Part shown: in pieces, positions 14,647 to 58,321 of the stretch
How the letters are laid out: each line of letters begins with the position of its first letter
Position numbering within the stretch: the stretch's first letter is position 1
DNA from: Mycobacteriales bacterium
GTDB taxonomy: Bacteria > Actinomycetota > Actinomycetes > Mycobacteriales > QHCE01
Direction of reading: 5' to 3'
DNA: 64,000 nucleotides
Assembly (NCBI GenBank): GCA_041743105.1
Contig: JBGTNI010000010.1
Location: 13,589-77,588 of the forward strand
Position numbers and translations under genes: made by a program
Notes under the pieces: generated by a model
Told to the model about the DNA's origin: nothing
Databases searched by the model: none
What the model saw: the letters and a program-made list of their open reading frames with translations, nothing else

Positions 14647-14648
14647 CC

Positions 14649-17807: not shown

Positions 17808-17820
17808 TGAGCAAACAACA

Positions 17821-17996: not shown

Positions 17997-18009
17997 TGTG
18001 CTATGCACT

Positions 18010-40942: not shown

Positions 40943-41692
40943 CTACGCTGTGCCGAAGCGTCGAGCACGTCGGGCGTACCTCTCAAGCGCCTGCCAGAGC
41001 GCCACCCGATCGAAGTCGGGGAACAATGTCTCGACAAAGAGCAGCTCGGCATAGGCCGACTGCCACAGCAAGAAGTTCGATAACCGCTGCTCGCCGGAGG
41101 TCCGCAGAAACAAGTCCACATCTGGTAGGGCCGGCTGATACAGCTCGCGTGCCACGCAGGCTTCGTCAATAGCTTCGGCCGACAACTCACCGGAGGCCAC
41201 CTGACGTGCGATGGCTCGCACCGCGTCGGTGAGCTCGGCGCGTGCGCCGTAATTGACACACAGCGTCAGCGTCATAGCCGTGTTGTGCTGGGTCAGCTCG
41301 GCGGCGGCATCGAGTTCGCGCGCCACACTGCGCCACAACCGTTCGCGGCGCCCCGCCCACTGGACACGCACGCCACGTTCATGCCACTCATCCCGGCGTC
41401 GTCGCAGCGAGGTGCGACTGTATCCCAGCAGGAACCGCACCTCTGCCGGGGCGCGCCGCCAGTTCTCGGTGGAGAAGGCATAGGCGGACAGATACTCGAT
41501 GCCGACCGCCAGACAGCCCTCGATCACCTCGGATAGCGCCGTTTCACCGTGACGGTGTCCCTCAGTGCGGGACAAGTCTCTCTGCTGGGCCCAACGTCCG
41601 TTACCGTCCATCACCAGCCCCACATGCCGTGGTAGCTGCCGCGGGGTGAACGCCGGCGGTCGGGGTGGTGCGATACCGCGCCGCTGCGCCAC
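40943..41692 (-). CDS. uppS: isoprenyl (decaprenyl/undecaprenyl) diphosphate synthase
   Basis: [13 protein letters not shown] and the [13 protein letters not shown] motif. Confidence 0.9.
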
Positions 41693-41715
41693 TACGATTC
41701 ACTCCCCTCTTGCTG

Positions 41716-42459
41716 TTAACTCCGATGCACCAACGGCAAGGATCGCAGACCGCGCTCGGTATGCCACTGCAGGTGTGCCGCGATGAGCCCGCTGGCCTCC
41801 CGTTGCGCGCTGGGGTGGCTGGCATCGGCGCTTGCCCAGTCTCCACTCCGCAACGCCACCATCAGGGCGTATGTCTCCGCTGAGGGCGAGACGGAACCGG
41901 CGGGCCGACAGCCCGAGCAGACCGACCCACCGGCATGCACCGAGAACGCCGGGTGGGGGCCGTCGCTGCCACAGACGGCACACTCGACCAACGCCGGAGC
42001 CCACCCGGCTATCGTCATCGCGCGCAGCAGGTACGCGTCGAGCACCAAGCTCGGCGTGTGCTCGGCGCCGCTCATGGCGCGCAGCGCGCCGGCGGTGAGG
42101 CTAAACAACTGCGGCACAGGTTCGCCTTCGTCACCGCTGAGTCGTTCGGCGGTCTCGGAGATCGCGCACGCCGCGGTGTAACGGGAGTAGTTGTCCGTCA
42201 GGTGCTTTCCGTACGGCGCAATGGTCTCGGTTTGCCGCACCGAGCGCAATGAGCTGCGGGGTGCGTTGGGTGCGTACCACTGCACATCGATATGGCTGAA
42301 CGGCTCGAGTCGGGCGCCGATACGGCTGGTGGTCTTGGCGACACCTCGCGCTACCGCCCGCAGCTTGCCGTGATGGTGGCTGAGCATGGTGACAATGCGG
42401 TCGGCTTCGCCCAGCTTGTGTAGGCGCAGCACCAATGCGTCATCTCGATACAGCGCCAC
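41716..42459 (-). CDS. recO: DNA repair protein RecO
   Basis: MALYRDDALVLRLHKLGEADRIVTMLS and a C-terminal Cys cluster, CAVCGS...CSGC. Confidence 0.9.
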   Translation of the reverse strand: MALYRDDALVLRLHKLGEADRIVTMLSHHHGKLRAVARGVAKTTSRIGARLEPFSHIDVQWYAPNAPRSSLRSVRQTETIAPYGKHLTDNYSRYTAACAISETAERLSGDEGEPVPQLFSLTAGALRAMSGAEHTPSLVLDAYLLRAMTIAGWAPALVECAVCGSDGPHPAFSVHAGGSVCSGCRPAGSVSPSAETYALMVALRSGDWASADASHPSAQREASGLIAAHLQWHTERGLRSLPLVHRS

Positions 42460-42474
42460 GACAGCATTGTCGCA

Positions 42475-45327
42475 CTAGCAGGGCGGCAGCTTCCCCCGCT
42501 CTATACCACTGGTCCACGCGTACGGAATGAAGGCGCCGTTGTCCAGGCGAAACCATTCCGTGCCTTCTTTGTTGCCGTTGTACATCCAGGATGTGATGTG
42601 CTGACCCTGGGCTTGGCAGGTGGCGGTGATGGGTGTGCCGTGGGGGAGAGGGCCGAGCATCCGGCTCTGCTGGCTGGACTCTTCGAAGGTGCGAATTCCG
42701 CCGTTGCAGTAGTCCGGGTTCGCGGTGCCCGCACTCACGCACGCCACCGTACCGCTGCCCCCGGCCGGCGGCGGCGGTGCAGGTGCGGGTGCCGGTGGCT
42801 GTGTCGGTTGGGGTTGCGGTTGGGGTTGGGGTTGCGGTTGGGGTTGCGGCTGCGGTTGGGGTTGCGGTTGGGGTTGCGGCTGCGGTTGGGGTTGGGGTTG
42901 CGGCTGCGGCTGCGGTTGGGGCTGTGGCTGCTCGCCGGGCACCAGCACCATGACAGACCGACCGGGTCCAGTTCCGGCCTCGTTGACGGCGGCAACCGTG
43001 ACCGTGATGGTCTGCCCCGCCGGCAGCCCGGTCAGCTGCTCGCTCATAGCGTTCCTACCATCGGCATTGGAAACCGGAACAGTGCGCCGCAATCCGGTGT
43101 CGGTGCTGACGGTATAGCCGGTGATAGGTTTGCCGTTGGTGATCGGCGGTGTCCACGAAACGTTCACCGCGCCCGGGCCGGCACCTTCGGCGCTCACTAT
43201 CGGCGCACCGGGGCTGCTGAACGCGTCGACCGGGTCACTGGGCTGCGACGCATCGCTCGACGCGTTGTTAGTCAGCGTGACCACCACGGTGAAGGTGTAG
43301 CTCGCGCCCATCGTCAATGACTCGGCCTTCACCGTGTAGCCGATAGGGCCCGTAGCGCTCGCAGAGTCAGGAGGGTCGATGTTGTCGATCACCACTTGGC
43401 CACCGGCGGTGCTGGTCTGGCCGGTGAGCTGATAGGAGCGCACGGTGCCGCCGTTGGTCTCCGGTGGCTGCCAGCTCACCGAGATACTGCCGTCGGGTTG
43501 GCCGCGACGGTTGGCCTCTGCGGTTACCGAAGTGGGAGGATCGGGCACTACTGACGTGGGGGTGACCGGGTTGGCCTTGGCGGCCTCGCCCTCACCCTTG
43601 GCATTCACCGCACGCACCGAGAACTCGTACGCCTTGCCGTTAGTCAGCCCGGTGACGTTCACCGAACATGGCTTGCCGGCCGCACAGGTATTTCCGGCTA
43701 CCTCTACTGGTCGGAGACCGCCGGTGACGATGTATTTGGTGATCGTGCTACCACGTGGGTCGGCGGGGCGCCACGAAATGATCGCGGATTCGTCACCGGC
43801 CTGCGCCCCGACGTTAGTCGGCGCGGTCGGCGGCAAGGAGTTCTCGGCCTGTTCGTCGGGGTCGGGAGCTGGTGAGCCGGTGTCGCCCGGCTCCGGACGC
43901 TCCGGTGTCCGATCCGTGCCGGGAACCCGCGGCAAATCGGGGAGTCGCGGCTTAGAGATCTGCGCACCGTCCCCCTGGCCGGCTTCCTCGCCTTGGCCGT
44001 TCCCATCCCCCTGCCGACCGTCGCGATCTTGACCCGGCTGGGTGTCGTTCCCACCGTTGTCGCCGTTGCCGTCTTGACCGTCAGTTGCCCTGGGGTCCAC
44101 GCGCCGGTTCGGGCCTTCGCCATTGACGATGTCTTTGGGTGCTTTCGCCAGCTCGGTGACCTTGTGCTTCTCATCGATCACCCAGGCCTTGTTGGTCCCC
44201 ACCGAGTTGATGACCAGGTGGTCTTCCCGGTTCTCCAACTCGACCTTGCCGCCGGGGTCGTCGATGTCTTCCAGGCTGTTGCCCCGCAAGTCGAAGACCC
44301 GCACTCGGTTGGCTTGCTCGTCGGGCACATACAAGCGTTCGGAGAACGCAATGGCCGGGCCGATCTTGTCGCCGACACCGGGAATAGACACCGCCCGTGC
44401 GTCATCGTTATCTACCAGCACCACTTTACGATCGTCGGGGTTGGTGATGGCCACGGTATCTCCGCGCACACGACTGAGCATCACGGCCTCGCCGACGTCG
44501 GGGAGCTCCATGGATGACACCGAGCCATCGGCCTTAGCCTTGATTAAGGTGTTCTCAGCGCGGTCGACCACGGCGGCACCGTGATCGAGCACGCCCATCG
44601 ACCACTTGTGACCGGCACCACCGACGGAGACTTCACGCTCTACCGACGGGCTCTTGCCGCCGCTACCAGGTCTGATCGCTACGGCTTTTCCAGCCTTGGG
44701 TGAACCGACCCAGAGCAGGCCGTCGTCGTCGAACTCCCCGCCCACCAAGTTCGATCCCTCGCCCACTAAGTCCGACGAGAGCTTAAACGCGCGACCCCGG
44801 GGTTCCATCTTGCCGGCCTCGAGCTGGCGGAACAGACCATTAGCGGTATCGACGAGCATTACGTTCGAACCGAAGAGTGCCACGCTCATGTCGGCAGGCG
44901 AGGAGGTGGAAGCGACCCCGGAGACATTGAGCGTGCTCAGCTCCACGGAGGTTATGGTCCCGGTTTCGAGATCGTGCAGCAGCAGGTGTTCGTCGGTCTG
45001 TATCACCCTGACCCGATGGCCACGGGCATCCGACAGCGAGCGACGCATATCTACCTGACCCGCTGACGCGTTGATCCTCACCGCCTCGCTTCGATTGCCG
45101 TCCCACAACCAGATCGCACCGTCGGTTAGCGACAATGCTCGGCTGACAGCCCCGGCGCCGAAGAGAGTGATTACCATTGCCGCAACAGTGGCGATAATTA
45201 CACCAACTGAGACAAATCCCCCGGCGCCTCGACGCGAAGAAGTTGGCAGGCGTCGACGAAGACTCCTCGCCAAGCGCCCACGCTGCCGAATGGCACGGTC
45301 GTCGGCACCGACCACGGAGGTAGCCAT
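42475..45327 (-). CDS. single-pass membrane protein: ~350-aa ectodomain, 3 FN3 domains, (PQ)20 spacer, Cys-containing C-terminal domain
   Basis: Arg-rich cytoplasmic tail and a TM segment (FVSVGVIIATVAAMVITLF). Three FN3-like units are recognisable (..ISWRPADPRGSTITKYIV.., ..VSWQPPETNGGTVRSYQL.., ..VSWTPPITNGKPITGYTV..). The C-terminal ~95 aa carry 4 Cys. Confidence 0.7.
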   Translation of the reverse strand: MATSVVGADDRAIRQRGRLARSLRRRLPTSSRRGAGGFVSVGVIIATVAAMVITLFGAGAVSRALSLTDGAIWLWDGNRSEAVRINASAGQVDMRRSLSDARGHRVRVIQTDEHLLLHDLETGTITSVELSTLNVSGVASTSSPADMSVALFGSNVMLVDTANGLFRQLEAGKMEPRGRAFKLSSDLVGEGSNLVGGEFDDDGLLWVGSPKAGKAVAIRPGSGGKSPSVEREVSVGGAGHKWSMGVLDHGAAVVDRAENTLIKAKADGSVSSMELPDVGEAVMLSRVRGDTVAITNPDDRKVVLVDNDDARAVSIPGVGDKIGPAIAFSERLYVPDEQANRVRVFDLRGNSLEDIDDPGGKVELENREDHLVINSVGTNKAWVIDEKHKVTELAKAPKDIVNGEGPNRRVDPRATDGQDGNGDNGGNDTQPGQDRDGRQGDGNGQGEEAGQGDGAQISKPRLPDLPRVPGTDRTPERPEPGDTGSPAPDPDEQAENSLPPTAPTNVGAQAGDESAIISWRPADPRGSTITKYIVTGGLRPVEVAGNTCAAGKPCSVNVTGLTNGKAYEFSVRAVNAKGEGEAAKANPVTPTSVVPDPPTSVTAEANRRGQPDGSISVSWQPPETNGGTVRSYQLTGQTSTAGGQVVIDNIDPPDSASATGPIGYTVKAESLTMGASYTFTVVVTLTNNASSDASQPSDPVDAFSSPGAPIVSAEGAGPGAVNVSWTPPITNGKPITGYTVSTDTGLRRTVPVSNADGRNAMSEQLTGLPAGQTITVTVAAVNEAGTGPGRSVMVLVPGEQPQPQPQPQPQPQPQPQPQPQPQPQPQPQPQPQPQPQPQPQPTQPPAPAPAPPPPAGGSGTVACVSAGTANPDYCNGGIRTFEESSQQSRMLGPLPHGTPITATCQAQGQHITSWMYNGNKEGTEWFRLDNGAFIPYAWTSGIERGKLPPC
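42808..42927. repeat. hexanucleotide tandem repeat encoding (Pro-Gln)x20
   Basis: 20 consecutive CCN-CAR units counted codon by codon on the minus strand. Confidence 0.9.
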
Positions 45328-45420
45328 TGTCTATGTCTCCCGGCATTCTCCCGGCGTCCGCAAATGGGGCTGTCTATAAGCTTATCCTGAGCGACACGGC
45401 TTACGGCAGGTTAAGACAGC

Positions 45421-45469
45421 GAACATGGGCCGAACGTGGGAGGCTCATAGCCACGAACGGCCCATGTTC
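45421..45469. promoter_or_regulatory. 12-bp perfect inverted repeat in the divergent FN3-gene / kinase intergenic region
   Basis: gaacatgggccg (45421-45432) pairs with cggcccatgttc (45458-45469). Confidence 0.35.
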
Positions 45470-45512
45470 CCAATTGACCCGATGTAGCACAATGCGGGCG
45501 CCTGCCCGGTAA

Positions 45513-45541
45513 GCTACTTTCGGGCTGACTTGGTAACGAAC
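45513..45541 (-). promoter_or_regulatory. second copy of the ~29-nt motif seen upstream of pyrH
   Basis: gctactttcgggctgacttggtaacgaac. Read on the minus strand it gives TCGTTA-N17-TAGCTT, about 190 nt upstream of the FN3-protein start. Confidence 0.4.
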
Positions 45542-45618
45542 AGCTCTGTACGCAGCGACAAACTGCCCTCATCAGAGGCACAATGGAGTCGTAACTACTG
45601 CGGTGGGGAGGGTAGGCA

Positions 45619-47799
45619 ATGAACGCTGAGGCCGACACGACCACCTATCTCCCCCGCGAGACACCGGTCACGCCACCACGACCTGTCACCTCCGGCATTC
45701 CCGACACCGTGGTGCCACTGTCAGCGGGCTCTATCATCCCCGGCCTGATGGGATACAGCGGGCTGGAGCTGATAGCCCATGGCAGCAGCGCGATCGTGTT
45801 TCGTGCCACTCAGAACAGGCTCAACCGCAAGGTAGCCATCAAGGTGTTACTGATCGACGATGTGATGACCACCGACGTTACGGTGCGTCGTGAACTGGAG
45901 ACGCTAGTTCAGCTCTCGAGTTCTCCCCACATCGTGAGCATCATCGACACCGGCGTCACCGATGCGGGCCAGCCCTACATTGTAATGGAGTACTGCGAGG
46001 GCGGTTCTTACGCGCAGATCCTCAAAGAACGTGGCCCGTTGCCGGCCGAGGAAGTCATCGAGGTCGGCATCAAGATCGGCGAAGCGCTGCACGCCGCACA
46101 TGAGGCCGGAATCATTCACCGCGACGTCAAGCCGCCGAATATTCTCCGCTCGCGGTTTGGCCCCGCCCTCACCGACTTCGGTATCGCCTACGCCGCCGAT
46201 GAGCTGGCCAGCACCGACACGTTCTATAAGCTCACACCGCACCATGCTTCCCCGGAGACGTTGCAGCAGGAGCACCAGACCGGGCAGTCCGACCTCTACA
46301 GTCTTGCCTCCACCATGTGGAATCTGCTGGCAGGGCGCCCCCCGTTCGCAAACCCCGGTCAAGATCCCGACGCGTTCCGACAGCGCGTGCTCAGCCAACC
46401 GGTTTCGCGGGTACCCCGCGACGACGTCCCCGACTGGTTACAGTCCGAGCTAGAGCGCGCCATGGCCAAGCGGGCGACCGAGCGCCATCCCACAGCACTG
46501 GCTTTCGCCGAAACGTTACGTCTGAACATGGCACGCACCTCGATGTCGGCGCCATGGCAGCCACGCAGCTCACCGCCGGGCGAAAGCCTCTCCTCCCCGG
46601 AACCCACCAGCAGCTATACCCAAGCGGCCACTCAAACGCAACGCACCCGTCCGAACGCGGTGCCGCCGGTATCGCCGGGTGGGTCGCCAGTGGTGATGCT
46701 GCCGGGTGCGATCCCGCAGCCCACCCCGTCCGCTGCGCCCACGAGCGGCGCGACGGTGCAGACACCGCCGGTGATCATCCCATCTTCGGCGCCCACCAGC
46801 GGTAGCACCGTCACGGTGGGTCGAACCGCCCATCCGCCGAACTCTGCCGCACTGCCCGTGGTCCTTCCGGGCGGGATCCAGGCGTCTGCTCCCACACAGC
46901 AGCGACCTTCCTCGGCGCAGCCGGTGGTCCAGCCGAAGTCAGTACCGGCGCAACAGACCGAACAAACGCAGCAGGTCGAGCAGTCGCAGCCTGAATCGGC
47001 GGCACCCCAACCCGCGTCAGCGCCGCGAACCTACAAGTCGCGGCCATCGCATGTGCCGCTGCCGCTGGACCAGCGAGAAGAAAGCGCGGGTACGGCCGAG
47101 CTGACCACGGGCGGCGGCACGGCGTCTACCCTGCCGGGGCGCACATGGTTCGAGCCGGCAAGCTCGCCTGGCGGCTCGTCCCCGGCAATCTCGCCGTACC
47201 AGCACGATTACACACCGCAGGCCGGCCTCCCACAAACCAGTATTCCGCAAGCCGGCATGGCCCGCACCGAGACCACGTCGGCTCCGCAGCCACACGAAAG
47301 TCCCTACAGCCGCGCCTACGAGGATTTAGACGAAGAGGACGACGAACGGTTCTCCTGGCGGCGGCCGCTAGTCACCGCCGGCGTCATCGGCGTGATTCTG
47401 GGCCTGATCACCACTGTCGGAATCATCGTGGCCGGCGGTGCCGAGTCGGACAAGGAAGCAGACTCCAGCCCCACTGCCTCGGCTTCCATCGTCGCCGAGG
47501 GGAAACCCACGAACGTCACTCTGGCTGACAACGGCAGCGCGGTAACCTTGCAGTGGAAAGACAACACGGGAGATCAAGCCGGGGTTTTCATCACCGCCCG
47601 GCCTGCCAGTGCGGCCCTAGGCCGTGTCGTCGCAACACCGGCCAAGGGCCAGACCAGTTATACGGTCTCGTCGATCGATGGCAAGCCACTGGACGCAAAA
47701 ATTGACTACTGCTTCCAGATTACGGCAGTGCCCTCTACCGATCATCTCGCTTTATCCGAAGTGGTGTGCACCGAACGCAGCGGCGCCCAAACCAACTGA
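45619..47799 (+). CDS. receptor-type Ser/Thr protein kinase (Hanks type) with FN3-like ectodomain
   Basis: A good SD (ggggaggg) precedes the start. Motifs VAIKVL, HRDVKPPNIL and DFG are present. A long Pro/Ser/Ala/Gln linker leads to a TM segment (VIGVILGLITTVGIIVAGG), then a ~140-aa beta-rich C-terminal domain. Confidence 0.85.
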   Translation: MNAEADTTTYLPRETPVTPPRPVTSGIPDTVVPLSAGSIIPGLMGYSGLELIAHGSSAIVFRATQNRLNRKVAIKVLLIDDVMTTDVTVRRELETLVQLSSSPHIVSIIDTGVTDAGQPYIVMEYCEGGSYAQILKERGPLPAEEVIEVGIKIGEALHAAHEAGIIHRDVKPPNILRSRFGPALTDFGIAYAADELASTDTFYKLTPHHASPETLQQEHQTGQSDLYSLASTMWNLLAGRPPFANPGQDPDAFRQRVLSQPVSRVPRDDVPDWLQSELERAMAKRATERHPTALAFAETLRLNMARTSMSAPWQPRSSPPGESLSSPEPTSSYTQAATQTQRTRPNAVPPVSPGGSPVVMLPGAIPQPTPSAAPTSGATVQTPPVIIPSSAPTSGSTVTVGRTAHPPNSAALPVVLPGGIQASAPTQQRPSSAQPVVQPKSVPAQQTEQTQQVEQSQPESAAPQPASAPRTYKSRPSHVPLPLDQREESAGTAELTTGGGTASTLPGRTWFEPASSPGGSSPAISPYQHDYTPQAGLPQTSIPQAGMARTETTSAPQPHESPYSRAYEDLDEEDDERFSWRRPLVTAGVIGVILGLITTVGIIVAGGAESDKEADSSPTASASIVAEGKPTNVTLADNGSAVTLQWKDNTGDQAGVFITARPASAALGRVVATPAKGQTSYTVSSIDGKPLDAKIDYCFQITAVPSTDHLALSEVVCTERSGAQTN

Positions 47800-50228
47800 G
47801 CATTCAGTACCTCCTGAGGTGACGGAGTGGGCCACGACGGCGGCCGCTGGACGGTAACGGCACGCTCTCGCTCCAGCCGGTGGCTACGCGCCCACAACAG
47901 CGGACCGGGCCGCAACGGCCACAACGCCCGGCGAAACCACCGCTGCCGCCTTTGCAGCTCGCGCACGTACTCGCTTGCGTCGGCGACTGCCTGATCGACG
48001 TGTGGTCGGAAGATCAGTCCCGGTGCGAACTCCACCGCGTTCACTACGGAGGCGAGTTCTTGTAAGGACGGTAGCGGTTGCCGATGCCCCGGTGTGAGCG
48101 TCGCGGCCATGTCGGCCACGTCGTGCGCGGCCAGATGGGGTGGCGGGCGATGTCGCGCCAAACGCATAGCATCGGCCACGTGCGCCCAAGCGCCGATCAC
48201 GCGCTGCGCAGGGTCAGCGGCACCTAACCGGCGTCGGCACAATAGGACACGTCCGAAGACCACCGCTAGTATGCCTAACACCAGCAGCGCCACAAGACCG
48301 ATCCCCACCAGCATGCCAATGTTAAGGATCTTCTCCCCGGTAGCTTGACTACGAGTGCCCGTGGACGGACCATCCGGCGATGGCTCGGGATTAGGGTTCT
48401 CGAGCTCCCGCAGCTGATCCTGCTTAGCACGGTTCTGCTGCTGTGCCTCCGGCGTGGCTTGATCCGGCGGGATAGAGGTGTCGTCGTTCGGCCGGGGGGA
48501 AGGGTCGAAAGGCACCCAGCCGTAACCGGCGAAATACACCTCCGGCCACGCGAAAGCGTCGCCAGCGGTGACCATGAAGCGGCCATCGCTTTGCGGAGTG
48601 CCGGCGTGGAAGCCGACTGAGACACGGCTAGGCAGCCCAGCGATGCGAGCCAGGAGCGCAAACGCGGTGGCAAACTGCTCCGAGGTCCCACGCTGCCCTC
48701 CTTGCTCCTTGGCGACAGTGAGGAAGAAGTCCAAGTTGGCCAAGCCATGACCAGACGAGGCCTCCGGGGTGAACGTGAAGTTACGCAGCAAGAACTGCTC
48801 AATCAGCAGCGCCCGGTTATACGGAGTCGCCGCCGGTGCGATCACGCTCGTTGCCAGCGAGACGATGCCGTCGGGCAGATTGGACGGCACATCGGCATAG
48901 CGCCGGATGTCCGGAGAGTCCGACAGGGCGGCATCGGAGAGCTTGCCGACATTGAAATCCGGGCGCCTCGACCGCACGTCATACTGCAACCCGGTGCGCA
49001 AACCCTCGGCCGTGACCAGCGATCCCGTGGTCGGGTCATAGGAGACCCGCACATCGGTGACTTGGCGCGGCTGCTCCACTGCCGGCAGCCACACTCCATC
49101 GAGGGTCAGCATCGTGTATTCCTGATTCACCGCGGTGCTGTTTGGGGACTGGTCACTGACAGGAAGCACCGATCCAGCCGAGCGATACTCGCTGCCGGGC
49201 AACCAGGACAGGCCGTTGTAATCGGTGAGCGTCACCCAACGAATCCGGCTAGGCACGTTGGTCTCCACCGTAAACAGCTGCTGCTGCGGAGCCCGGGCCC
49301 AGCCCGACAGCCGGCCGAGCGGATTAGATTCGGGAAGCTGCTGCTCTGGTGGCGGGATACGCGTTCGGGGATCGCGGGGCTTCACATCGGACAGACCCAC
49401 CACGGTGGGAGCCAGAACCAGTGTGGCAAGCATCAGTGCCACCAGACCCAGTCCACCGATCGCGGCACGCCGGATGCGGAACGCCTTGCGGGAGGCTGCT
49501 CCCAGCTGCCGCAGTACGTGACTGATGGTGGGGTCCCCGCTGAACGCCAGTCCCAGCGCCGCCACTCCCGCGAAGGCAACCGCCAGGGGTAGCGACGCGG
49601 CAGCGTTGGGCCCTACGAGCACAAGCGCGATCACATACGCCATCGCCGGCGCTACGAACCCGGCGAGCACCGTGCGGGTCCGTAGCGTCAGCTCAGCACC
49701 GGTCAGACCAGCGATCCAGACCACTACCAGCGGGAGCACAACGGTCTGCGGCGTCGGCATCACCGGGATCGTGCTCGTGAGGATCTGCGCACCAGAGTTA
49801 CGGATCGATTCGAGGAACAGCGCCCCTACACTGCCGGTGCCCGGTTGCCGAGTCCAGGCAACTGCCGCGACAAGGTAACCGACCATCACCACGATCGAGA
49901 CCGTGATGGACGCCAGCAGCGATGTCCGCAGTCCCCGCAACGATGCGCTGGCCGCCACCGACAACACTGCCGCCCCGGCCAGCAAGAACAACAGGAAGGA
50001 GCCGGAATAAATCCGGGTGAAGGCCGAGCCAGCGATGATCAACAAACCAGCAAGAGCTGCCGCGCTGAGTACATCGCGTCCGGTGAGAGCATCGGTCATT
50101 GTAGGCAAAGGAGCGGTGTCATGCCGGTCGACTTTGGCCTCCGTGGCCGGTCCATGCTGGGACGACTCCTGCCGGGATGGCAGCTGATGAGGCACGGTAT
50201 CGGCTACCACGAGCGCACCTCGTCCCAC
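47742..50228 (-). CDS. polytopic transglutaminase-like (TgpA-type) protein with non-canonical triad
   Basis: N-terminal TM bundle. The core region reads RGTSEQFATAFALLARIAGLPSRV...DAFAWPEVYFAGYGWVPFDPSP, followed by a second TM segment. Its GTG start overlaps the DUF58 stop. Confidence 0.7.
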   Translation of the reverse strand: MGRGALVVADTVPHQLPSRQESSQHGPATEAKVDRHDTAPLPTMTDALTGRDVLSAAALAGLLIIAGSAFTRIYSGSFLLFLLAGAAVLSVAASASLRGLRTSLLASITVSIVVMVGYLVAAVAWTRQPGTGSVGALFLESIRNSGAQILTSTIPVMPTPQTVVLPLVVVWIAGLTGAELTLRTRTVLAGFVAPAMAYVIALVLVGPNAAASLPLAVAFAGVAALGLAFSGDPTISHVLRQLGAASRKAFRIRRAAIGGLGLVALMLATLVLAPTVVGLSDVKPRDPRTRIPPPEQQLPESNPLGRLSGWARAPQQQLFTVETNVPSRIRWVTLTDYNGLSWLPGSEYRSAGSVLPVSDQSPNSTAVNQEYTMLTLDGVWLPAVEQPRQVTDVRVSYDPTTGSLVTAEGLRTGLQYDVRSRRPDFNVGKLSDAALSDSPDIRRYADVPSNLPDGIVSLATSVIAPAATPYNRALLIEQFLLRNFTFTPEASSGHGLANLDFFLTVAKEQGGQRGTSEQFATAFALLARIAGLPSRVSVGFHAGTPQSDGRFMVTAGDAFAWPEVYFAGYGWVPFDPSPRPNDDTSIPPDQATPEAQQQNRAKQDQLRELENPNPEPSPDGPSTGTRSQATGEKILNIGMLVGIGLVALLVLGILAVVFGRVLLCRRRLGAADPAQRVIGAWAHVADAMRLARHRPPPHLAAHDVADMAATLTPGHRQPLPSLQELASVVNAVEFAPGLIFRPHVDQAVADASEYVRELQRRQRWFRRALWPLRPGPLLWARSHRLERERAVTVQRPPSWPTPSPQEVLNAQLVWAPLRSVHTTSDKAR

Positions 50229-51367
50229 ACAGAGGAGAATTCGTCGGCATCCTTCGCACCGATCACCAACATTCCGGCGTCGCTGCTTGTTCTAGAAACT
50301 TCGCCGCCGATCACGGCCACCAGAATCGAGGGATACATCCCCCGCAACGATGCGATCGGCGCGATATCGTTCTCGCCGTGCACTCCGGTGAGCACGACGA
50401 GCGTGTCGCCGAGCCGACGAGCGTGAAGCCGGTCGATGGCGAACGCCATCGACGTCTCACCGGTGAGCTCGGACTCACCGGTGAGCTCGGCCTCCGCGAT
50501 GGTGTCCATAAACGTTTGCGTTCCCAAGCTGCCCTCACTACCACCGATTGCGGCGCCACCAACGATCTGCAGGTTCACGTGCAGACCGGCGCGAAGTGCG
50601 GCGACTACCACCGACGCAGCTGCATCGGCCGCCGACTCGAAGGCCTCTGGATCGTGATACGCCGCGCGGCGGTTATCCAGCAGCACCACCAGGCGCGGCA
50701 ACGAAGTGTCCACGTGCTCGCGCACCATGAGCTGACCCACCCGCGCCGCGGTACGCCAATGCACATGCCGCAGGTCGTCGCCTGGAACGTACTCACGGAG
50801 CGCGTGGAAAGTGATCGAGCCATGCTCGACTTGGTCCACCGCACCGTCGAGGCTACGAGCCCGACCGACTGGGACGCTGTGCAGCTGTCTAGGCGCCGGG
50901 TGTACCCAGACTTGCCGAGTTCCGCCGTACTCCCGGCTGATGCGGATGATGTCCAGCGGATCCCGGCGTTCGATGCGTAACGGTCCTACCGTGACCACTC
51001 CACGTCGTCGGGTGGGTAGCGGATACTGAACCGCGGTGACCTTGGCCGGACCGAGCCGCACCACCGGCACCGTCACGGTGCTTTGGCCACAGCGGTCGAA
51101 CGCGATGAGGTCCACGCCTCGCCACCGGGCGTGATTGCGCACGCTGACCAGGCCGAGGCATTCTTCACCGCGCACCACCCGGTCGGGCTCCACGTCGCGG
51201 TGCACATCCAGCGTCCAACGACGCAGCGCGAAGATAAACGCCCCGCAGAAAGCCAGCACGGCGGCAACACCGATCACGGTCAGCTCGTCATAACCAAAAA
51301 TCAGCCCACCCGTGATCAACGCAATACCCGCCAGCAGCAGCCCAACGCCCCGGCGAGTCACCCGCAT
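50204..51367 (-). CDS. DUF58 (vWA-like) protein
   Basis: SD aggagg. Two N-terminal TM segments and the DUF58 signature DDLRHVHWRTAARVGQLMVREH. Confidence 0.75.
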   Translation of the reverse strand: MRVTRRGVGLLLAGIALITGGLIFGYDELTVIGVAAVLAFCGAFIFALRRWTLDVHRDVEPDRVVRGEECLGLVSVRNHARWRGVDLIAFDRCGQSTVTVPVVRLGPAKVTAVQYPLPTRRRGVVTVGPLRIERRDPLDIIRISREYGGTRQVWVHPAPRQLHSVPVGRARSLDGAVDQVEHGSITFHALREYVPGDDLRHVHWRTAARVGQLMVREHVDTSLPRLVVLLDNRRAAYHDPEAFESAADAAASVVVAALRAGLHVNLQIVGGAAIGGSEGSLGTQTFMDTIAEAELTGESELTGETSMAFAIDRLHARRLGDTLVVLTGVHGENDIAPIASLRGMYPSILVAVIGGEVSRTSSDAGMLVIGAKDADEFSSVWDEVRSW

Positions 51368-51576: not shown

Positions 51577-52698
51577 CTATCGTTGCCCGGCGCTTTGTGG
51601 ATATGGCTGAGACGGCGCAGGGGGGCCCGAGTACATGGTCGGAGTGAGGCGGGAACCGCGTCCCGTCTCCGCGCCTGTCGGAGGCGTGGAAGTCACCGGC
51701 GCGGTGGGGGGCTGCTGAGCACCTGGGCGTGGCACCGAGACCGATTCCACGACGTCCCGCAGCGCCGCTACAGCGCTGCGACCGCGCAACGCGGCGTCCG
51801 GTGACATCACCAAACGGTGTGCGTACACCGGTTCTACAAGGGCCTTGATGTCTTCGGGCACTACGTATCCGCGCCCCTGAGAGAGCGCATAAACCTGCGA
51901 AGCTCGGGTGAGGGCAATCGCGCCGCGTGGGCTCACGCCCACCCGGACATCGGGCACTTCGCGTGTCGCGGCAGCCAGACTGACCATGTAGGAATACAAC
52001 GGTGGCGCGATGTATACCCGCTGCGCCAGACTGATCAACCGCGTGACGGTCTCGGTGTCGGTCACCGGACGCAGGGCATCCACCGAACGACCACCGACAG
52101 CACCGCGGACCACATCGATTTCCACGGCTTCGGTGGGATAGCCCACCGAGATGCGCATGATGAATCGGTCGAGCTGCGCCTCCGGGAGACGGTAGGTCCC
52201 GTCCATCTCGATCGGGTTCTGGGTGGCAACTACCAGGAACGGCCGCGGCACACCGTGGGCGACCCCGTCGATGGTGACATTGTGCTCCTCCATGACCTCC
52301 AGCAACGCTGACTGGGTCTTGGGCGAGGCCCGGTTGATCTCATCGGCGATGACGACGTTGGCGAAGACGGGACCGGGATGGAACTCGAAGGTCCGGCTTG
52401 CCTGGTTGAAGATGGTTACGCCGGAGACGTCGGAGGGCAGCAGGTCCGGTGTGAACTGGATTCGTCGCCACTGGCCTTGCACGCTGGCGGCGATCGCCCG
52501 AGCAATCGTGGTCTTACCGACGCCAGGCACATCCTCGATCAGCAGGTGTCCTTCGGCGAACATCGCGGTGAGCGCCAACCGGACAACGTCGGCTTTGCCG
52601 AGTAGTACCGCCTCCACATTCATCGCGATGCGACCGAACGCATTGCCGAACGTCGATACTTCAACCGGGCTCAATTGATCGGTGTAATTGCCGGTCAC
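51577..52698 (-). CDS. MoxR-family AAA+ ATPase (Pro-rich C-terminal tail)
   Basis: Walker A DVPGVGKT and Walker B VIADEINRA, with the typical MoxR length plus a ~60-aa tail. Confidence 0.85.
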   Translation of the reverse strand: MTGNYTDQLSPVEVSTFGNAFGRIAMNVEAVLLGKADVVRLALTAMFAEGHLLIEDVPGVGKTTIARAIAASVQGQWRRIQFTPDLLPSDVSGVTIFNQASRTFEFHPGPVFANVVIADEINRASPKTQSALLEVMEEHNVTIDGVAHGVPRPFLVVATQNPIEMDGTYRLPEAQLDRFIMRISVGYPTEAVEIDVVRGAVGGRSVDALRPVTDTETVTRLISLAQRVYIAPPLYSYMVSLAAATREVPDVRVGVSPRGAIALTRASQVYALSQGRGYVVPEDIKALVEPVYAHRLVMSPDAALRGRSAVAALRDVVESVSVPRPGAQQPPTAPVTSTPPTGAETGRGSRLTPTMYSGPPAPSQPYPQSAGQR

Positions 52699-52959: not shown

Positions 52960-54627
52960 GTGGCCAAAGAGTCATCCGCAGCTAAAGGGGAGACCGTGCA
53001 GAAGATCCGATTTTTCCGGCGAGGCATCCTCGCTCCGTTGTGTGGAGTAATAGCCACCGCGGTAGCACTCGGCGTCGCCGAGCTGGTCGCGGCGCTACTT
53101 CGCCCGCAGGCGTCGCCGCTGGTCACTGTCGGTCAGACAGTGATCGACGCGACGCCTACCTCAATGGAGCAGTGGGCGATCCGCACCTTCGGTAGCAACG
53201 ATAAGGCCGTGCTCTTAGGTGGCATCCTGGCGATGCTGACCATCTTCGCCGCCGTCGTCGGATACCTGGCGAGCCGGTACCTGCCGATCGGCGTGGCCGG
53301 GGTGATTTTCTTCGGTGTCGTCGGGGTGATAGCCGCGCAGACCAGACCCTCATCGGAGACAACTGACATCGTGCCCGCCATCGCGGCGGTCATCGCCGGG
53401 GCGCTGGCGCTGATCTTCCTGATCCGCGCACTACCACCTCGCGAACCTGCCTCACTTCCGGCGGCCGATGACTCCGAGAAGGCGGAAGCACCCGAGGCCT
53501 CCCACGGCGGCACAGACACCACGGGCGCCGAGCCGGCCACAATTTCGGCGAAGTCCGAGTACTCACGTCGCGGCTTGCTGATTCTAGGATCGGCCCTGGG
53601 TGCCAGCGCTATAGCCACTGCTTCAGTTGGCCGCTGGCTACAAGGAGTGCTCTACAACGCAACCGCGTCCCGCGATGCGGTGAAGCTTCCCGTGCCGGTG
53701 AGTGCCGCGCCACCGATCCCGGCCGGCGCCACGCTGGATATCGGCGGCATCAGCAGCTTTGTGACACCCAATTCCAAATTCTACAAAGTGGACACCGCGC
53801 TCGTGGTACCTCAGATACGAACTCAGGATTGGCAGCTGCGCATCCACGGCATGGTGAAAAAGCCGATCACGCTCACCTTCGACGAGCTACTGGAACTACC
53901 CATGATCGAACGAATGATCACCATGACGTGCGTCTCTAACCAAGTCGGCGGAGACCTGGTCGGCAACGCGACCTGGCTTGGGGTGGCACTGGGACCGTTC
54001 CTCTCCGAACGTGGTGTCTCGGCAAAGGCGGATCAACTGGTCTGCCGCTCGGTAGATGGTATGACCATCGGAGCGCCGCTGAAGCAGATCCTCGACGGAC
54101 GCGACGCACTGTTGGCGATCGGAATGAATGGCGAACCACTGCCGTTTAACAATGGTTTCCCGGCACGGGTGATCGTGCCGGGTCTGTATGGCTACTGCTC
54201 GGCGTGCAAATGGGTAGTGGACATGGAGGCAACCACGTTCGATGCCTTCGACACCTACTGGGTGAAGCGCGACTGGGCACAGGTCGCACCGGTCAAGATC
54301 TCTGCCCGCATCGATACTCCCGAGCCGCTCAGCAGTCCTCAAGCGGGGCAGATCGACATCGCCGGTGTGGCGTGGGCGCAGGATCGCGGCATCTCCAAGG
54401 TTGAGGTCAACGTGGACGACGGCCCGTGGCGGGAGGCGGATCTTGCCGAGCAGATATCGGAAGATGTCTGGCGGCAATGGGTTTACCGGTGGGACGCCTC
54501 GCCTGGCCGGCACAAGCTCACCGCGCGTGCCACCGATGGCAATGGACAGGTCCAGGTGCAGCAGCGCGTAAAGCCGTTTCCTGACGGTTCCAGTGGCTGG
54601 CACAGCAATGTCGTAACGGTTAAGTAA
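52960..54627 (+). CDS. membrane-anchored molybdopterin-dependent oxidoreductase (sulfite-oxidase fold)
   Basis: N-terminal TM region, then the molybdopterin-binding-domain pattern ITMTCVSNQVGGDLVGNATWLGV and a C-terminal Ig-like dimerisation-type domain. The start is uncertain. Confidence 0.7.
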   Translation: MAKESSAAKGETVQKIRFFRRGILAPLCGVIATAVALGVAELVAALLRPQASPLVTVGQTVIDATPTSMEQWAIRTFGSNDKAVLLGGILAMLTIFAAVVGYLASRYLPIGVAGVIFFGVVGVIAAQTRPSSETTDIVPAIAAVIAGALALIFLIRALPPREPASLPAADDSEKAEAPEASHGGTDTTGAEPATISAKSEYSRRGLLILGSALGASAIATASVGRWLQGVLYNATASRDAVKLPVPVSAAPPIPAGATLDIGGISSFVTPNSKFYKVDTALVVPQIRTQDWQLRIHGMVKKPITLTFDELLELPMIERMITMTCVSNQVGGDLVGNATWLGVALGPFLSERGVSAKADQLVCRSVDGMTIGAPLKQILDGRDALLAIGMNGEPLPFNNGFPARVIVPGLYGYCSACKWVVDMEATTFDAFDTYWVKRDWAQVAPVKISARIDTPEPLSSPQAGQIDIAGVAWAQDRGISKVEVNVDDGPWREADLAEQISEDVWRQWVYRWDASPGRHKLTARATDGNGQVQVQQRVKPFPDGSSGWHSNVVTVK

Positions 54628-54736: not shown

Positions 54737-55372
54737 ATGTTGAAACGTAAGATCGCTACATTGCTAGCGGTCGGAGCACTCACCATCTCGCTCGCCGCGT
54801 GTGGTGACGACTCCAAGGATGACAGTTCCAGTGACAACAAGGCCGAGCCTTCGGCGTCCGCACCCGCCGCTGGCCCCTTCGGCGCGGGATGCGCAGGCGT
54901 GCCGACAGAGGGCGAGGGCAGCGTCGAGGGCATGACCGATGACCCGGTAGCTACCGCTGCCAGTAACAATCCTCTACTGTCCACTTTGGTCACAGCTGTT
55001 AAGGCAGCGGACTTGGTCGACACGCTCAACGGCGCAGAGGCCCTCACCGTCTTCGCCCCGGCCAACACTGCCTTCGCGAAGATTCCTGAGGCCGACTTGA
55101 AGGCGCTACTGGCCGACAAGGAACAGCTGACCAAGGTTCTGAGCTATCACGTGGTCGCAGGCAAGCTCTCTCCTGAGCAGCTCGCCGGCACCCACAAGAC
55201 CTTGGTGGAAGGCACGGAGCTGACCGTGACAGGCAGCGGCGAGAACTTCACCGTTAACGGCGGCTCCAAGGTGGTCTGTGGCAACGTGCAGACCGCTAAC
55301 GCCACCGTGTATGTCGTCGACACCGTGCTCGATGTTTCGACCAAGAGCGTCATGGGAGCGAAGCAAAGCTAA
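54737..55372 (+). CDS. fasciclin (FAS1) domain lipoprotein
   Basis: Lipobox LAACGDD; FAS1 motifs TVFAPANTAF and LSYHVVAGKL. Confidence 0.8.
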   Translation: MLKRKIATLLAVGALTISLAACGDDSKDDSSSDNKAEPSASAPAAGPFGAGCAGVPTEGEGSVEGMTDDPVATAASNNPLLSTLVTAVKAADLVDTLNGAEALTVFAPANTAFAKIPEADLKALLADKEQLTKVLSYHVVAGKLSPEQLAGTHKTLVEGTELTVTGSGENFTVNGGSKVVCGNVQTANATVYVVDTVLDVSTKSVMGAKQS

Positions 55373-56532: not shown

Positions 56533-56534
56533 GG

Positions 56535-57872: not shown

Positions 57873-58315
57873 GTGCGCAACAGCCGGTTCTGTAACGCGA
57901 ACATCTCGCGCTCTTCCTCCGGATCGGCATGGTCGTAGCCAAGTAGGTGCAGCACCCCATGCACGGTGAGCAGGTGCAGCTCGTCGGCCATGCTGTGACC
58001 TGCTTGCCGGGCTTGCTGCTTGGCAACGGCCGGACAGAGCACCACATCGCCGAGTAGCGCGAATGTGTCGCCTGGCACATGGCCGGGACCACGCTCGGAG
58101 TCGAACTCATCCATCGGGAATGCCAGTACATCGGTGGGACCGGAAGAGTCCATCCACCGCTGGTTCAACTCACTCATGTGCTCGGTATCGATCAGCAGCA
58201 TCGACAGTTCGGCCATCGGGCTCACGCCCATCTCCTCGAGGGCATGTCGGGCGACCGCGACGAGCATGGATTCATCCAGTACGACACCCGATTCGTTGGC
58301 TATCTCGATCGACAT
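57854..58315 (-). CDS. ybeY: rRNA maturation endoribonuclease YbeY
   Basis: [11 protein letters not shown] zinc motif. Confidence 0.9.
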
Positions 58316-58321
58316 CGCGGG

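Follow-up and report, generated by a model that had tools for sequence, protein, structure and literature searches.

The window, a 64,000-nucleotide stretch of DNA from an uncultured, soil-type Mycobacteriales bacterium, contains a cluster of five adjacent genes. These encode a 950-aa surface protein with FN3 domains (referred to here as the sensor), a receptor Ser/Thr kinase, a transglutaminase-like (TG-like) protein, a DUF58 protein and a MoxR-family AAA+ ATPase (Table 1). ORF calling and Pfam searches recovered the ORF positions and domains given in an earlier reading made from the DNA letters and their translations (the sequence-only reading), and the gap of ~290 bp that it placed between the FN3 protein and kinase genes measured 291 nt. 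The genes fall into three transcriptional blocks, with the sensor on the minus strand, the kinase on the plus strand, and the TG-like, DUF58 and MoxR genes together on the minus strand; this gene order is unlike that of either published cluster (PFNA and Esr) discussed below. The start codons of the sensor and kinase genes are backed by N-termini conserved in an alignment with the closest relative. Conservation of the intergenic region between them with loci L001 and L007, both from Mycobacteriales MAGs, is limited to the stretches beside both starts, and a search of this region for promoters and terminators gave no convincing match. The 3' end of the sensor gene lies 15 nt from recO, in recO-uppS, with which it may be co-transcribed. 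The cluster sits in the core chromosome, with era on one side and recO-uppS on the other, and its base composition is not atypical.

Table 1. Positions of the genes and features of the cluster within the window.
Feature	Position	Strand	Extent	Evidence
FN3 sensor ORF	42475..45327	-	950 aa	
C-terminal 4-Cys SH3b-like domain	42478..42771	-	aa ~853-950	profile, AF2, Foldseek
(PQ)~20 spacer	42805..42931	-	6-nt repeat, 19-20 copies, 30-nt super-period	TRF
Three FN3 domains	42943..43836	-	aa ~498-795	Pfam PF00041, 3 stretches, E 1.1e-30
Predicted beta-propeller N-terminal ectodomain	44128..45132	-	aa ~66-400	AF2, Foldseek, profile search
Single hydrophobic helix	45145..45216	-	aa 38-61, after 37-aa Arg-rich tail	AF2 helix
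Divergent intergenic region, sensor gene/kinase gene	45328..45618	.	291 nt	
Receptor Ser/Thr kinase ORF	45619..47799	+	726 aa	Pfam Pkinase, E 4.5e-38
Kinase ectodomain, FN3/Ig-like beta-sandwich (predicted)	47503..47787	+	aa ~629-723	tblastn, alignment, hhalign
Kinase/TG-like convergent 3' overlap	47742..47799	.	58 nt	
Transglutaminase-like ORF	47742..50228	-	828 aa	Pfam TgpA_N + Transglut_core
DUF58 ORF	50204..51367	-	387 aa	Pfam PF01882, E 1.3e-10
MoxR-family AAA+ ATPase ORF	51577..52698	-	373 aa	Pfam AAA_3, E 2.6e-62; AAA_lid_2

From its N-terminus the sensor comprises an Arg-rich cytoplasmic tail, a TM helix, a predicted beta-propeller, a linker, three FN3 domains, the (PQ)20 spacer and an SH3b-like domain. 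Within the helix, G57 and G59 are invariant and A50 and T54 near-invariant in the family alignment, a pattern more in keeping with a working membrane anchor than with a signal peptide alone. Pfam and NCBIfam scans of the ~350-aa N-terminal ectodomain gave no match. Its AF2 model (pLDDT 85, pTM 0.81) has ~28 strands and probably seven blades, the best Foldseek matches in the PDB were the NirF, BamB, YVTN and Vgb lyase propellers (E ~1e-11), and the profile search found 220 cluster representatives with E<1e-30, a number that rose to 1040 with the limit set to E<1e-10. On the strength of the model we assign the ectodomain as a beta-propeller belonging to a large unnamed family, of which this predicted fold is the hallmark. 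At the other end of the protein the last 98 aa contain four Cys, as had been claimed for a C-terminal domain of ~95 aa, and the alignment shows two Cys and one Trp to be unchanged throughout the family. The profile of this domain matched SH3-like cell-wall-binding domains in the PDB (8b2f, E 6.6e-8; 8b2s, E 8.6e-7), its AF2 model (pLDDT 93) had 8b2s, 8b2g and 8b2f as best Foldseek matches (rmsd 1.6-2.2 Å), and Pfam SH3_3 matched it below threshold in two homologs; we read it as an SH3b-like, predicted cell-wall-binding domain. Structure prediction, which the sequence-only reading had proposed for both regions, thus returned a beta-propeller for the ectodomain and an SH3b-like fold for the Cys domain. 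That reading had recognized neither of these, nor the loss of the transglutaminase catalytic Cys and His described below.

The kinase domain (aa ~38-305) has the VAIK, HRD and DFG motifs and a degenerate Gly loop, and is followed by a Pro/Gln/Ser linker of ~275 aa, a TM segment (aa 584-606) and an ectodomain of ~95 aa with two conserved Cys. Analysis by tblastn and alignment showed this ectodomain to be conserved in the TG-convergent kinases of L001, L007, L010-L012 and L014. The suggestion that it is FN3-like gained moderate support from hhalign comparison with the FN3-repeat profile (54% probability, E 1.2e-4, with 66 columns aligned in register), but Pfam returned weak Ig-like matches only.

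The 58-nt overlap of the convergent kinase and TG-like genes was confirmed from both stop codons (kinase TGA, 47797..47799; TG-like TGA, 47742..47744 on the minus strand). The overlap is 94 nt in L001. In L007, a close relative, the two genes are instead separated by 48 nt; they are 19-97 nt apart in Actinocatenispora and Nocardioides and 2.1 kb apart in one Actinocatenispora. Elsewhere the TG-like protein ends in the conserved motif W..LDPRPLFWR-stop, whose counterpart in the window is LWPLRPGPLLWAR (aa 769-781), and the overlap arises because the window ORF continues 47 aa beyond this motif. The extension is lineage-specific and non-conserved, and the overlap is incidental and no functional tie. 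The idea that it physically links the genes was not borne out, since a gap is found in L007 and all other lineages examined.

The TG-like protein consists of a TgpA_N TM bundle, a predicted extracytoplasmic core, a TM segment (aa ~638-660) and a predicted cytoplasmic tail. Its Ser516, Phe559 and Asp575 align with the Cys, His and Asp of Pseudomonas aeruginosa TgpA (6g49). The motifs G[TG]SEQFA and GDA[FVM]AW occur in 10/10 ortholog loci aligned, and Bifidobacterium adolescentis Tgm has GDSEQYA at the nucleophile position. The catalytic Cys and His were missing from every ortholog examined (the 10 loci and Bifidobacterium); the His position carries Phe, Val, Met, Thr or Glu and Bifidobacterium has lost the Asp, so that no conserved triad is left. 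These substitutions suggest a non-catalytic role, and they bear on a published proposal for covalent anchoring of the surface protein. In the epibiont sensing and response (Esr) pathway of Schaalia odontolytica, deletion of esrD (esrD1) releases the surface protein EsrA (EsrA1), and the authors hypothesize that the transglutaminase attaches EsrA covalently (Wang et al., Sept 2026; bioRxiv 10.64898/2026.09.08.750141). This release would also be expected if the TG-like protein were still an enzyme, using Ser516 as nucleophile along with other residues or acting as a protease or transamidase, that anchors the sensor covalently to the wall, with the module serving mainly in sorting or attachment. 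The Ser-Glu-Gln at the nucleophile position is strictly kept from Mycobacteriales to Bifidobacterium, which argues for selection on the site. We nevertheless regard an active enzyme as unlikely given the replaced His and lost Asp, and given that a membrane helix and an SH3b-like wall-binding domain are already part of the sensor itself. A more novel reading, to which we give somewhat less than even odds, is a family-wide pseudo-transglutaminase (Ser-Glu-Gln, no His) combined with a non-covalently held sensor and MoxR-DUF58 remodeling that gates the kinase. If the protein is such a pseudo-enzyme, the sensor would be held by its membrane helix, its SH3b-like end and the pseudo-transglutaminase as co-receptor, and the MoxR-DUF58 pair would remodel this co-receptor from the cytoplasmic side, thereby gating the kinase. 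Of that pair, the DUF58 protein has two N-terminal TM helices and a vWA-like cytoplasmic domain, in which alignment revealed no DxSxS MIDAS motif, and the MoxR ATPase has both Walker motifs (A and B) and ends in a tail rich in Pro, Ser and Thr.

Homologs of the sensor N-domain adjoin (MoxR-)DUF58-transglutaminase genes in every full-length case with enough flanking DNA, and a receptor Ser/Thr kinase is adjacent in most such loci. The gene set recurs in Mycobacteriales MAGs, Actinocatenispora, Streptomonospora, Nocardioides and Hamadaea, and partly in Actinomadura. The layout of L001 and L007 is that of the window. Three Actinocatenispora loci (L010-L012) have the FN3 protein, MoxR, DUF58 and TG genes in one direction and the kinase convergent to them, with recO-uppS next after the cluster in L011 and L012; the sequence of a further Actinocatenispora locus (L013) stops inside MoxR. 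All genes are co-directional in Streptomonospora (L002, L009), with the kinase last. The Nocardioides locus (L014) runs from an FHA-FtsK/SpoIIIE gene through sensor, MoxR, DUF58 and TG to a convergent kinase, L015 shares the layout of the window and lies beside fhaA-fhaB-PP2C-rodA-pbpA, and in Hamadaea (L017) sensor-DUF58-TG lies beside EccD and a WXG100 giant. Esx/type VII genes repeatedly adjoin the related loci. The sensor homologs of Actinomadura are entirely without FN3, and it is the propeller rather than the FN3 repeats that is conserved as a partner of the MoxR module. This recurrence around sensor homologs lends good support to the earlier suggestion that all five genes make up a single envelope system. 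The accompanying view that the system has no obvious assigned function is outdated, as the set corresponds to the bifidobacterial PFNA cluster (PMC8430577, PMC6803598) and agrees with the Esr pathway, which was described in oral Actinobacteria (Schaalia).

We interpret the five genes as an Esr/PFNA-type module for cell-surface sensing and phospho-signaling, with a probability of roughly 0.7. The architecture, folds, conserved neighborhood and Bifidobacterium homology were computed here; the topology of the module, the order of events, the non-catalytic role of the TG-like protein and the signal that this organism would sense are inferred. The sensor would be held in the membrane by its N-terminal helix, with the propeller proximal to the membrane, the FN3 domains and a (PQ)20 rod forming a stalk and the SH3b-like end binding the wall. 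The polytopic TG-like protein, having lost the Cys-His pair, would most likely act as a co-receptor that keeps or places the sensor in position without cross-linking it covalently, and the MoxR ATPase and membrane-anchored DUF58 protein would couple to the sensor complex at the cytoplasmic face. As output, the receptor kinase with its small FN3-like ectodomain would respond to a change in the complex outside the cell by phosphorylating Ser/Thr residues. Neither tblastn with FhaA, FhaB, PP2C and EccC-FHA queries nor Pfam scans of 60 ORFs detected an FHA or PP2C gene in the 64-kb window, and tblastn and the same scans found no Esx gene anywhere in it, so that the output step is locally unaccounted for. 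The FHA and PP2C output partners of the module must be encoded elsewhere, or be the general FhaA/FhaB/PstP set.

The chromosomal setting of the cluster also suits a housekeeping monitor of wall integrity or growth, in which the SH3b end and propeller report wall thickness or damage and the kinase tunes envelope synthesis, rather than a sensor of biotic threat. The cluster lies in the core chromosome between era and recO-uppS, an adjacency to recO-uppS seen also in Actinocatenispora, and the neighboring uppS product makes the wall-precursor carrier. L015 lies beside rodA-pbpA, the window lacks Esx genes and the base composition is unremarkable. However, the only genetic data for the family, from Schaalia, describe a response specific to one epibiont strain (bioRxiv 10.64898/2026.09.08.750141), Esx/type VII genes are recurrent neighbors of related loci, and the sensor domain is highly divergent across lineages (mean column identity 35%), as expected of a conflict receptor. 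We consider a pure wall monitor improbable, and retain the Esr/PFNA-type module as the preferred reading.

Parts of the module resemble other known systems. P. aeruginosa TgpA (PDB 6G49) likewise combines TgpA_N with an extracytoplasmic Transglut_core and is encoded after MoxR and DUF58 genes. It differs in having the Cys-His-Asp triad where the window protein has Ser, Phe and Asp. We know of no propeller protein or kinase associated with TgpA. The MoxR-vWA-beta-propeller ternary conflict systems (Kaur, Burroughs, Iyer, Aravind 2020; PMC7159879) also combine MoxR with a vWA-type partner and a propeller sensor, and the window MoxR scores above the cut-off for Pfam bpMoxR (30.6 vs 27 bits), although its AAA_3 score is far stronger (208.9 bits). 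The window propeller, in contrast, is predicted to be extracytoplasmic and is fused to FN3 and SH3b-like domains, and none of the effector/toxin domains of ternary conflict systems was seen in the window cluster. Esr-type clusters are reported not to have been picked up by Kaur et al. 2020 (bioRxiv 10.64898/2026.09.08.750141). The sensor C-terminus shows fold and profile likeness to the SH3b domains of muramidases and endolysins (GH24 muramidase 8B2S/8B2F, lysostaphin, ALE-1), but sits on a predicted signaling sensor rather than a lytic enzyme and has conserved Cys pairs.

The PFNA cluster of Bifidobacterium comprises pkb2, fn3, aaa-atp (MoxR), duf58 and tgm (Nezametdinova et al. 2018; PMC8430577, PMC6803598), and the window has the same five core gene products, adjacent to one another. 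Homology extends beyond the FN3 repeats. The window-family N-domain profile matched the N-terminus of the B. adolescentis FN3 protein at 41.4 bits (best domain 40.7) and that of a second species at 32.0 bits, against a maximum of 6.9 bits among 600 shuffles, so the Bifidobacterium protein carries a propeller-family N-terminal domain like that of the window sensor. Tgm is an ortholog of the TG-like protein, sharing its Transglut_core and, at the position of the catalytic Cys, the derived SEQ[FY]A motif. The window kinase domain is 34% identical to that of B. adolescentis Pkb2, which has the same layout of kinase, one TM segment and a two-Cys ectodomain of ~95 aa; the window ectodomain profile scored 1.8-5.4 bits against Pkb2, a level at which ectodomain homology is not demonstrable by sequence. 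The PFNA genes run in one direction, and in B. longum they are co-transcribed and Pkb2 phosphorylates the MoxR ATPase (PMC8430577, PMC6803598). The window has three blocks instead, and Streptomonospora a co-directional version. The Bifidobacterium FN3 protein is also far longer (~210 kDa, with many extra repeats), and prpC and fha, often present in PFNA, have no FHA or PP2C counterpart in the window. PFNA has been read as a host-cytokine sensor unique to bifidobacteria (PMC8430577, PMC6803598), and a B. longum FN3 fragment binds TNF-alpha in vitro (PMC8430577). Given their homology to the PFNA proteins, the window proteins might likewise be a host-cytokine receptor whose FN3 domains bind TNF-alpha and whose kinase relays host immune signals. 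Yet Actinocatenispora, Streptomonospora, Nocardioides, Hamadaea and environmental MAGs, free-living Actinomycetota of soil, saline and environmental origin, have the cluster too, so the claim of uniqueness to bifidobacteria is wrong, and FN3 is absent in Actinomadura while the propeller is the part that stays with the MoxR module. A cytokine receptor here is thus very improbable, and host-cytokine binding is implausible and disfavored as a general function of the family.

The Esr pathway was compared with the window by its published description rather than by the S. odontolytica F0309 sequences. Esr comprises a surface protein that has a beta-propeller at its N-terminus, together with MoxR, vWA, transglutaminase and S/T kinase proteins and an Esx link, with EsrG-EccC fusions also seen in the family, and is reported to be confined to the class Actinomycetes, with a patchy distribution in Mycobacteriales. 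It is tied to Patescibacteria epibionts through induction and defense, and both the epibiont-induced response and EsrG phosphorylation depend on EsrA (all bioRxiv 10.64898/2026.09.08.750141). On this description, the window shares a sensor with propeller and repeat stalk (here FN3 domains), an adjacent MoxR and vWA-type (DUF58) pair, a membrane transglutaminase-family protein corresponding to EsrD (TgpA_N and Transglut_core) and a Pkinase protein with catalytic motifs corresponding to EsrE, and window-related loci independently show Esx linkage and FHA-EccC fusions. It differs in that the EsrF phosphatase, the EsrG FHA output protein and an Esx gene are absent from the 64-kb window, the stalk has three FN3 domains and (PQ)20 rather than 14 Ig-like repeats, the sensor ends in an SH3b-like predicted wall-binding domain, the kinase and transglutaminase genes converge, and the sensor gene has recO as a neighbor. 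The Ser and Phe at the catalytic positions of the window TG-like protein fit poorly with covalent cross-linking of the kind hypothesized for EsrD, which would need a Cys-His-Asp triad.

The cluster in the window represents a known pathway in a version reduced to a core of five genes, and is nothing fundamentally new; the new details are the predicted propeller ectodomain and SH3b-like C-terminus, the weakly FN3-like kinase ectodomain and a transglutaminase without catalytic Cys and His. The sensor now has a testable description, in which a membrane helix is followed by the propeller, a stalk of FN3 and (PQ) units, and an SH3b end for wall binding. Should the TG-like protein prove a pseudo-enzyme, PFNA and Esr, from literatures that do not cite each other, would be one ancient chromosomal module of Actinomycetota, and the window core without FHA, phosphatase or Esx its minimal form. 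The PFNA operon and the Esr pathway appear to be the same system, reaching free-living uncultured Mycobacteriales, which undercuts a host-cytokine function as its general role.

We found that the window carries a cluster of five genes, encoding a 950-aa fibronectin type III (FN3) protein (here the sensor), a receptor kinase, a transglutaminase-like protein (TG), a DUF58 protein and a MoxR ATPase. The best-supported reading is that the cluster encodes, in an uncultured Mycobacteriales lineage, a surface sensor of the type known as PFNA in Bifidobacterium and as Esr in Schaalia odontolytica. The ORFs, their domains and a 58-nt overlap between two of them, as first noted from sequence, were all confirmed by the ORF list, translations, Pfam and stop codons. 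Pfam matches on the cluster comprised three fn3 stretches, Pkinase, TgpA_N with Transglut_core, DUF58, and AAA_3/AAA_lid_2. The divergent sensor and kinase genes are separated by 291 nt in the ORF list; when this region was aligned with those of the two closest loci (L001 and L007), conservation was confined to the gene starts, and a promoter/terminator scan of 42300..48100 gave no signal exceeding shuffles.

Coordinates of the cluster genes and flanking features in the window
Feature	Coordinates	Strand	Detail	Basis
Sensor gene	42475..45327	-	950 aa	ORF list, translation
(PQ) run of sensor	42805..42931		6-nt repeat, 19-20 copies	tandem-repeat analysis
Kinase gene	45619..47799	+	726 aa	ORF list, translation
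Transglutaminase-like gene	47742..50228	-	828 aa	ORF list, translation
DUF58 gene	50204..51367	-		ORF list, Pfam
MoxR gene	51577..52698	-		ORF list, Pfam
recO-uppS	40943..42459
Molybdopterin oxidoreductase	52960..54627
Fasciclin protein	54737..55372
era-CNNM-ybeY-phoH	55528..60535

The N-terminal ectodomain of the sensor (N-domain, residues ~66-400) matched no Pfam or NCBIfam model. Its profile, searched against 1.84 billion cluster representatives, returned 1040 proteins at E<1e-10, 220 of which also passed E<1e-30. Almost all are 600-950 aa long and have the N-domain directly after an N-terminal hydrophobic helix; those with names are called 'fibronectin type III domain-containing' or 'hypothetical', and the organisms named are Hamadaea, Actinomadura, Nocardioides and Litorihabitans. 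An AlphaFold2 model of the N-domain has a helix followed by ~28 strands (pLDDT 85, pTM 0.81), and Foldseek matched it to the beta-propellers NirF, BamB, an archaeal YVTN propeller and Vgb lyase (E ~1e-11). In the hydrophobic helix Gly57 and Gly59 are invariant across the family alignment and Ala50 and Thr54 nearly so, and we infer that the helix functions in the membrane and is not cleaved off as a signal peptide. The propeller domain also contains a 21-nt in-frame tandem duplication (44735..44775, two copies, 85% match), which lengthens one loop by 7 residues compared with all homologues (…DLVGEGSN LVGGEF…).

Many family members end in a sequence that aligns with the C-terminal four-Cys domain of the sensor; two Cys and one Trp do not vary in this alignment. 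Searched against the PDB, the profile of the domain matched SH3-like cell-wall-binding domains (8b2f, E 6.6e-8; 8b2s, 8b2g and 2kq8), its AlphaFold2 model (pLDDT 93) superposed on such domains at 1.6-2.2 A, and Pfam SH3_3 gave a sub-threshold match in two sensor homologues. Profile and model thus point to an SH3b-like domain, an assignment that goes beyond the literature consulted. With a predicted wall-binding end of this kind, the cluster might instead serve as a housekeeping monitor of wall integrity, a possibility to which we give low to moderate weight.

When TG is aligned to Pseudomonas aeruginosa TgpA (PDB 6g49), the catalytic Cys, His and Asp correspond to Ser516, Phe559 and Asp575. 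All ten actinomycete orthologues carry G[TG]SEQFA and GDA[FVM]AW at the catalytic sites, Tgm of B. adolescentis has GDSEQYA, NDVTAW and AFYPTP, and a second Bifidobacterium Tgm likewise has SEQYA, its remaining two sites being Glu and His. It follows from these motifs that the nucleophilic Cys has become a conserved Ser, that the His is lost and that the Asp is not universal. The predicted loss of both the catalytic Cys and His across the family is beyond the literature consulted, and a thiol transglutaminase or protease mechanism for TG is excluded. The conserved Ser-Glu-Gln nevertheless suggests that the site still matters. TG could then remain catalytic as a Ser-based anchoring enzyme; deletion of esrD1, its Schaalia counterpart, releases the filament protein EsrA1 into the supernatant (bioRxiv 10.64898/2026.09.08.750141), and we place the weight of this explanation between low and moderate. 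The DxSxS MIDAS motif was absent from the vWA-like domain of DUF58 in all aligned members. The DUF58 gene of the window also shows a small in-frame duplication ('ELTGES ELTGET') that is single-copy in L001.

The kinase ectodomain is conserved among the kinases encoded convergently to the transglutaminase gene. The suggestion that it is FN3-like was upheld in part, in that it aligned in register with the FN3 repeats of the sensor but with only modest significance (hhalign 54%, E 1.2e-4).

We used the window proteins as tblastn queries to survey the fetched loci. In L001, a metagenome contig with a sensor 66% identical to that of the window, MoxR-DUF58-TG converge on the kinase gene, followed by the FN3 protein; L007, from a 'Mycobacteriales bacterium' MAG, is arranged like the window, and these two are the closest relatives of the cluster. 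Another metagenome contig (L015), whose sensor is a more distant family member, has exactly the window layout. In three Actinocatenispora loci (L010-L012) the FN3 protein, MoxR, DUF58 and TG genes run in that order towards a convergent kinase gene, with recO-uppS after the cluster in L011 and L012; the sequence of a fourth, L013, stops inside MoxR. The Streptomonospora genes lie on a single strand (FN3 protein, two small genes, MoxR-DUF58-TG-kinase), and directly upstream of MoxR-DUF58-TG in Actinomadura is a 624-aa protein having only the N-terminal domain in common with the sensor. More distant sensor-family loci with cluster genes occur in Nocardioides (L014) and Hamadaea flava (L017), and the contig of L016 stops right past the sensor gene and so is uninformative. 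Since the gene set is kept in at least four orders, the earlier proposal that the five genes form one system is supported.

A genome scan by a narrow peptide pattern yielded seven loci, and a word-indexed search returned few full-length homologues of the sensor. Word-indexed searches with the N-domain alone or a 33-sequence profile added almost no new members and did not reach Bifidobacterium or Schaalia. The sole unlinked relative is a short paralogue of 553-565 aa (L003, L004 and L008), which consists of a propeller and one FN3-like region and adjoins AhpC/CMD genes without linkage to MoxR; the L008 paralogue and the linked copy L007 belong to the same MAG. P0001, the closest sensor homologue, encoded in L001, continues past its third FN3 domain into a tail resembling an acyl-CoA synthetase C-terminus (…IPRDIQIVAELPRSPTGKVLKREL…, L001 11100..11253); the contig ends here, and the join is probably an assembly chimera.

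The kinase and TG stop codons, read directly, give the 58-nt convergent overlap, and a mis-called stop was rejected as its source since neither ORF has an earlier in-frame stop. In the window the TG end motif LWPLRPGPLLWAR (residues 769-781) is followed by 47 non-conserved residues, the final part being a reverse reading of the kinase C-terminus. TG ends 0-3 residues past the conserved motif (…LDPRPLFWR) in other lineages and 8 residues further in Actinomadura; the L001 protein extends still further, with a 94-nt overlap. The sequence-only reading took the overlap as a physical link, which was not borne out: in the close relative L007 TG stops earlier, leaving a 48-nt gap, and the gap is 19-97 nt in other lineages and 2.1 kb in one Actinocatenispora. 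No terminator-like hairpin was found between the two genes in the scan of 42300..48100. Tight convergent packing is kept across relatives but the overlap is not, and the overlap is a side effect of drifting stop codons in GC-rich DNA rather than a physical tie.

Core genes surround the cluster (rpsB-tsf-pyrH-frr-cdsA, Ku/LigD, sucA and znuABC), and next in order come uppS-recO, the cluster, the molybdopterin oxidoreductase, the fasciclin protein and era-CNNM-ybeY-phoH. A 15-nt gap separates the end of the sensor gene from recO. The recO-uppS and era-CNNM-ybeY-phoH groups are adjacent in Mycobacterium tuberculosis. In Actinocatenispora recO-uppS directly adjoin the kinase gene, and therefore the chromosomal position of the cluster may be old. 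We dropped a horizontally acquired island as an explanation, given this shared adjacency and a base composition that is ordinary relative to the rest of the window. Within the era-phoH group, the 737-aa PhoH-like ATPase (58322..60535, minus strand) has its PhoH domain split in two by a LAGLIDADG_3 region at residues ~468-530, apparently an intein that carries a homing endonuclease and has inserted into phoH. Near rpsB-tsf-pyrH-frr, an NHEJ locus (12515..17050) contains a XerC-type tyrosine recombinase gene, Ku and a LigD split into primase-polymerase and phosphoesterase-ligase ORFs. Tblastn and Pfam scans of 60 ORFs revealed no FHA, PP2C, EccC or EccD genes in the 64 kb, so the window holds, as in PFNA, a five-gene core, here without a local output module.

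In a sensor of Esr/PFNA type, the propeller, the FN3/(PQ) stalk with its SH3b-like end, the pseudo-transglutaminase domain and the kinase FN3-like domain would lie outside the membrane, and the kinase domain, MoxR, the DUF58 vWA-like domain and the TG tail inside. The kinase would respond to changes in the extracellular assembly, and MoxR and DUF58 would modulate this relay in an ATP-driven manner. Published support comes from other organisms: in B. longum the PFNA genes are co-transcribed and the MoxR ATPase is phosphorylated in vitro by Pkb2 (PMC8430577, PMC6803598), and in S. odontolytica an FHA protein is phosphorylated in a sensor-dependent way (bioRxiv 10.64898/2026.09.08.750141). For this organism we infer the order of events, a non-catalytic role of TG and the nature of the signal.

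The Esr pathway was described in S. odontolytica in a September 2026 preprint. The surface filament EsrA combines an N-terminal beta-propeller with Ig-like repeats, and the further parts are MoxR, vWA, the EsrD transglutaminase, the EsrE kinase, the EsrF phosphatase and the EsrG FHA output. The response to a Saccharibacteria epibiont, in transcriptome and proteome alike, depends on EsrA1, as does phosphorylation of EsrG1 Thr152. Distribution in Mycobacteriales is reported as patchy, esx genes adjoin 40% of 3502 Esr loci and EsrG-EccC fusions are occasional (bioRxiv 10.64898/2026.09.08.750141). FHA-FtsK/SpoIIIE proteins of ~1400 aa adjoin the cluster in L014 (5685..10004) and L015 (1..1068), and in L017 (6304..7320 and 14219..18703) its neighbours include EccD and a 4937-aa WXG100_2 protein. 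These loci independently reproduce the Esx linkage and the FHA fusions, whereas the window has no such type VII/Esx-like genes.

At its core PFNA comprises the five genes pkb2, fn3, aaa-atp (MoxR), duf58 and tgm; the cluster was read as a host-cytokine sensor, said to be unique to bifidobacteria (PMC8430577, PMC6803598). Host-cytokine sensing as the function of the window cluster receives very low weight from us. Using FN3, Pkb2 and Tgm sequences from the supplementary gene alignments of PMC6803598, we found that the FN3 N-termini of B. adolescentis, directly after the TM helix, and of a second Bifidobacterium species scored 41.4 and 32.0 bits against the N-domain profile (best of 600 shuffled controls, 6.9 bits). 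Pkb2 is 34% identical to the window kinase in the kinase domain and shares its layout of a TM segment plus a ~95-aa two-Cys ectodomain; the match of the actinomycete kinase-ectodomain profile to the Pkb2 ectodomains was not significant. In its main text the Esr preprint makes no mention of PFNA, Bifidobacterium or DUF58 (bioRxiv 10.64898/2026.09.08.750141), and the two literatures seem to concern one gene set without cross-reference. Given both sets of papers, the earlier view that these genes have no obvious assigned function is outdated. The window and PFNA share the same five-gene core and the SEQ motif of TG and Tgm, and PFNA and Esr, going beyond the literature consulted, appear to be the same system.
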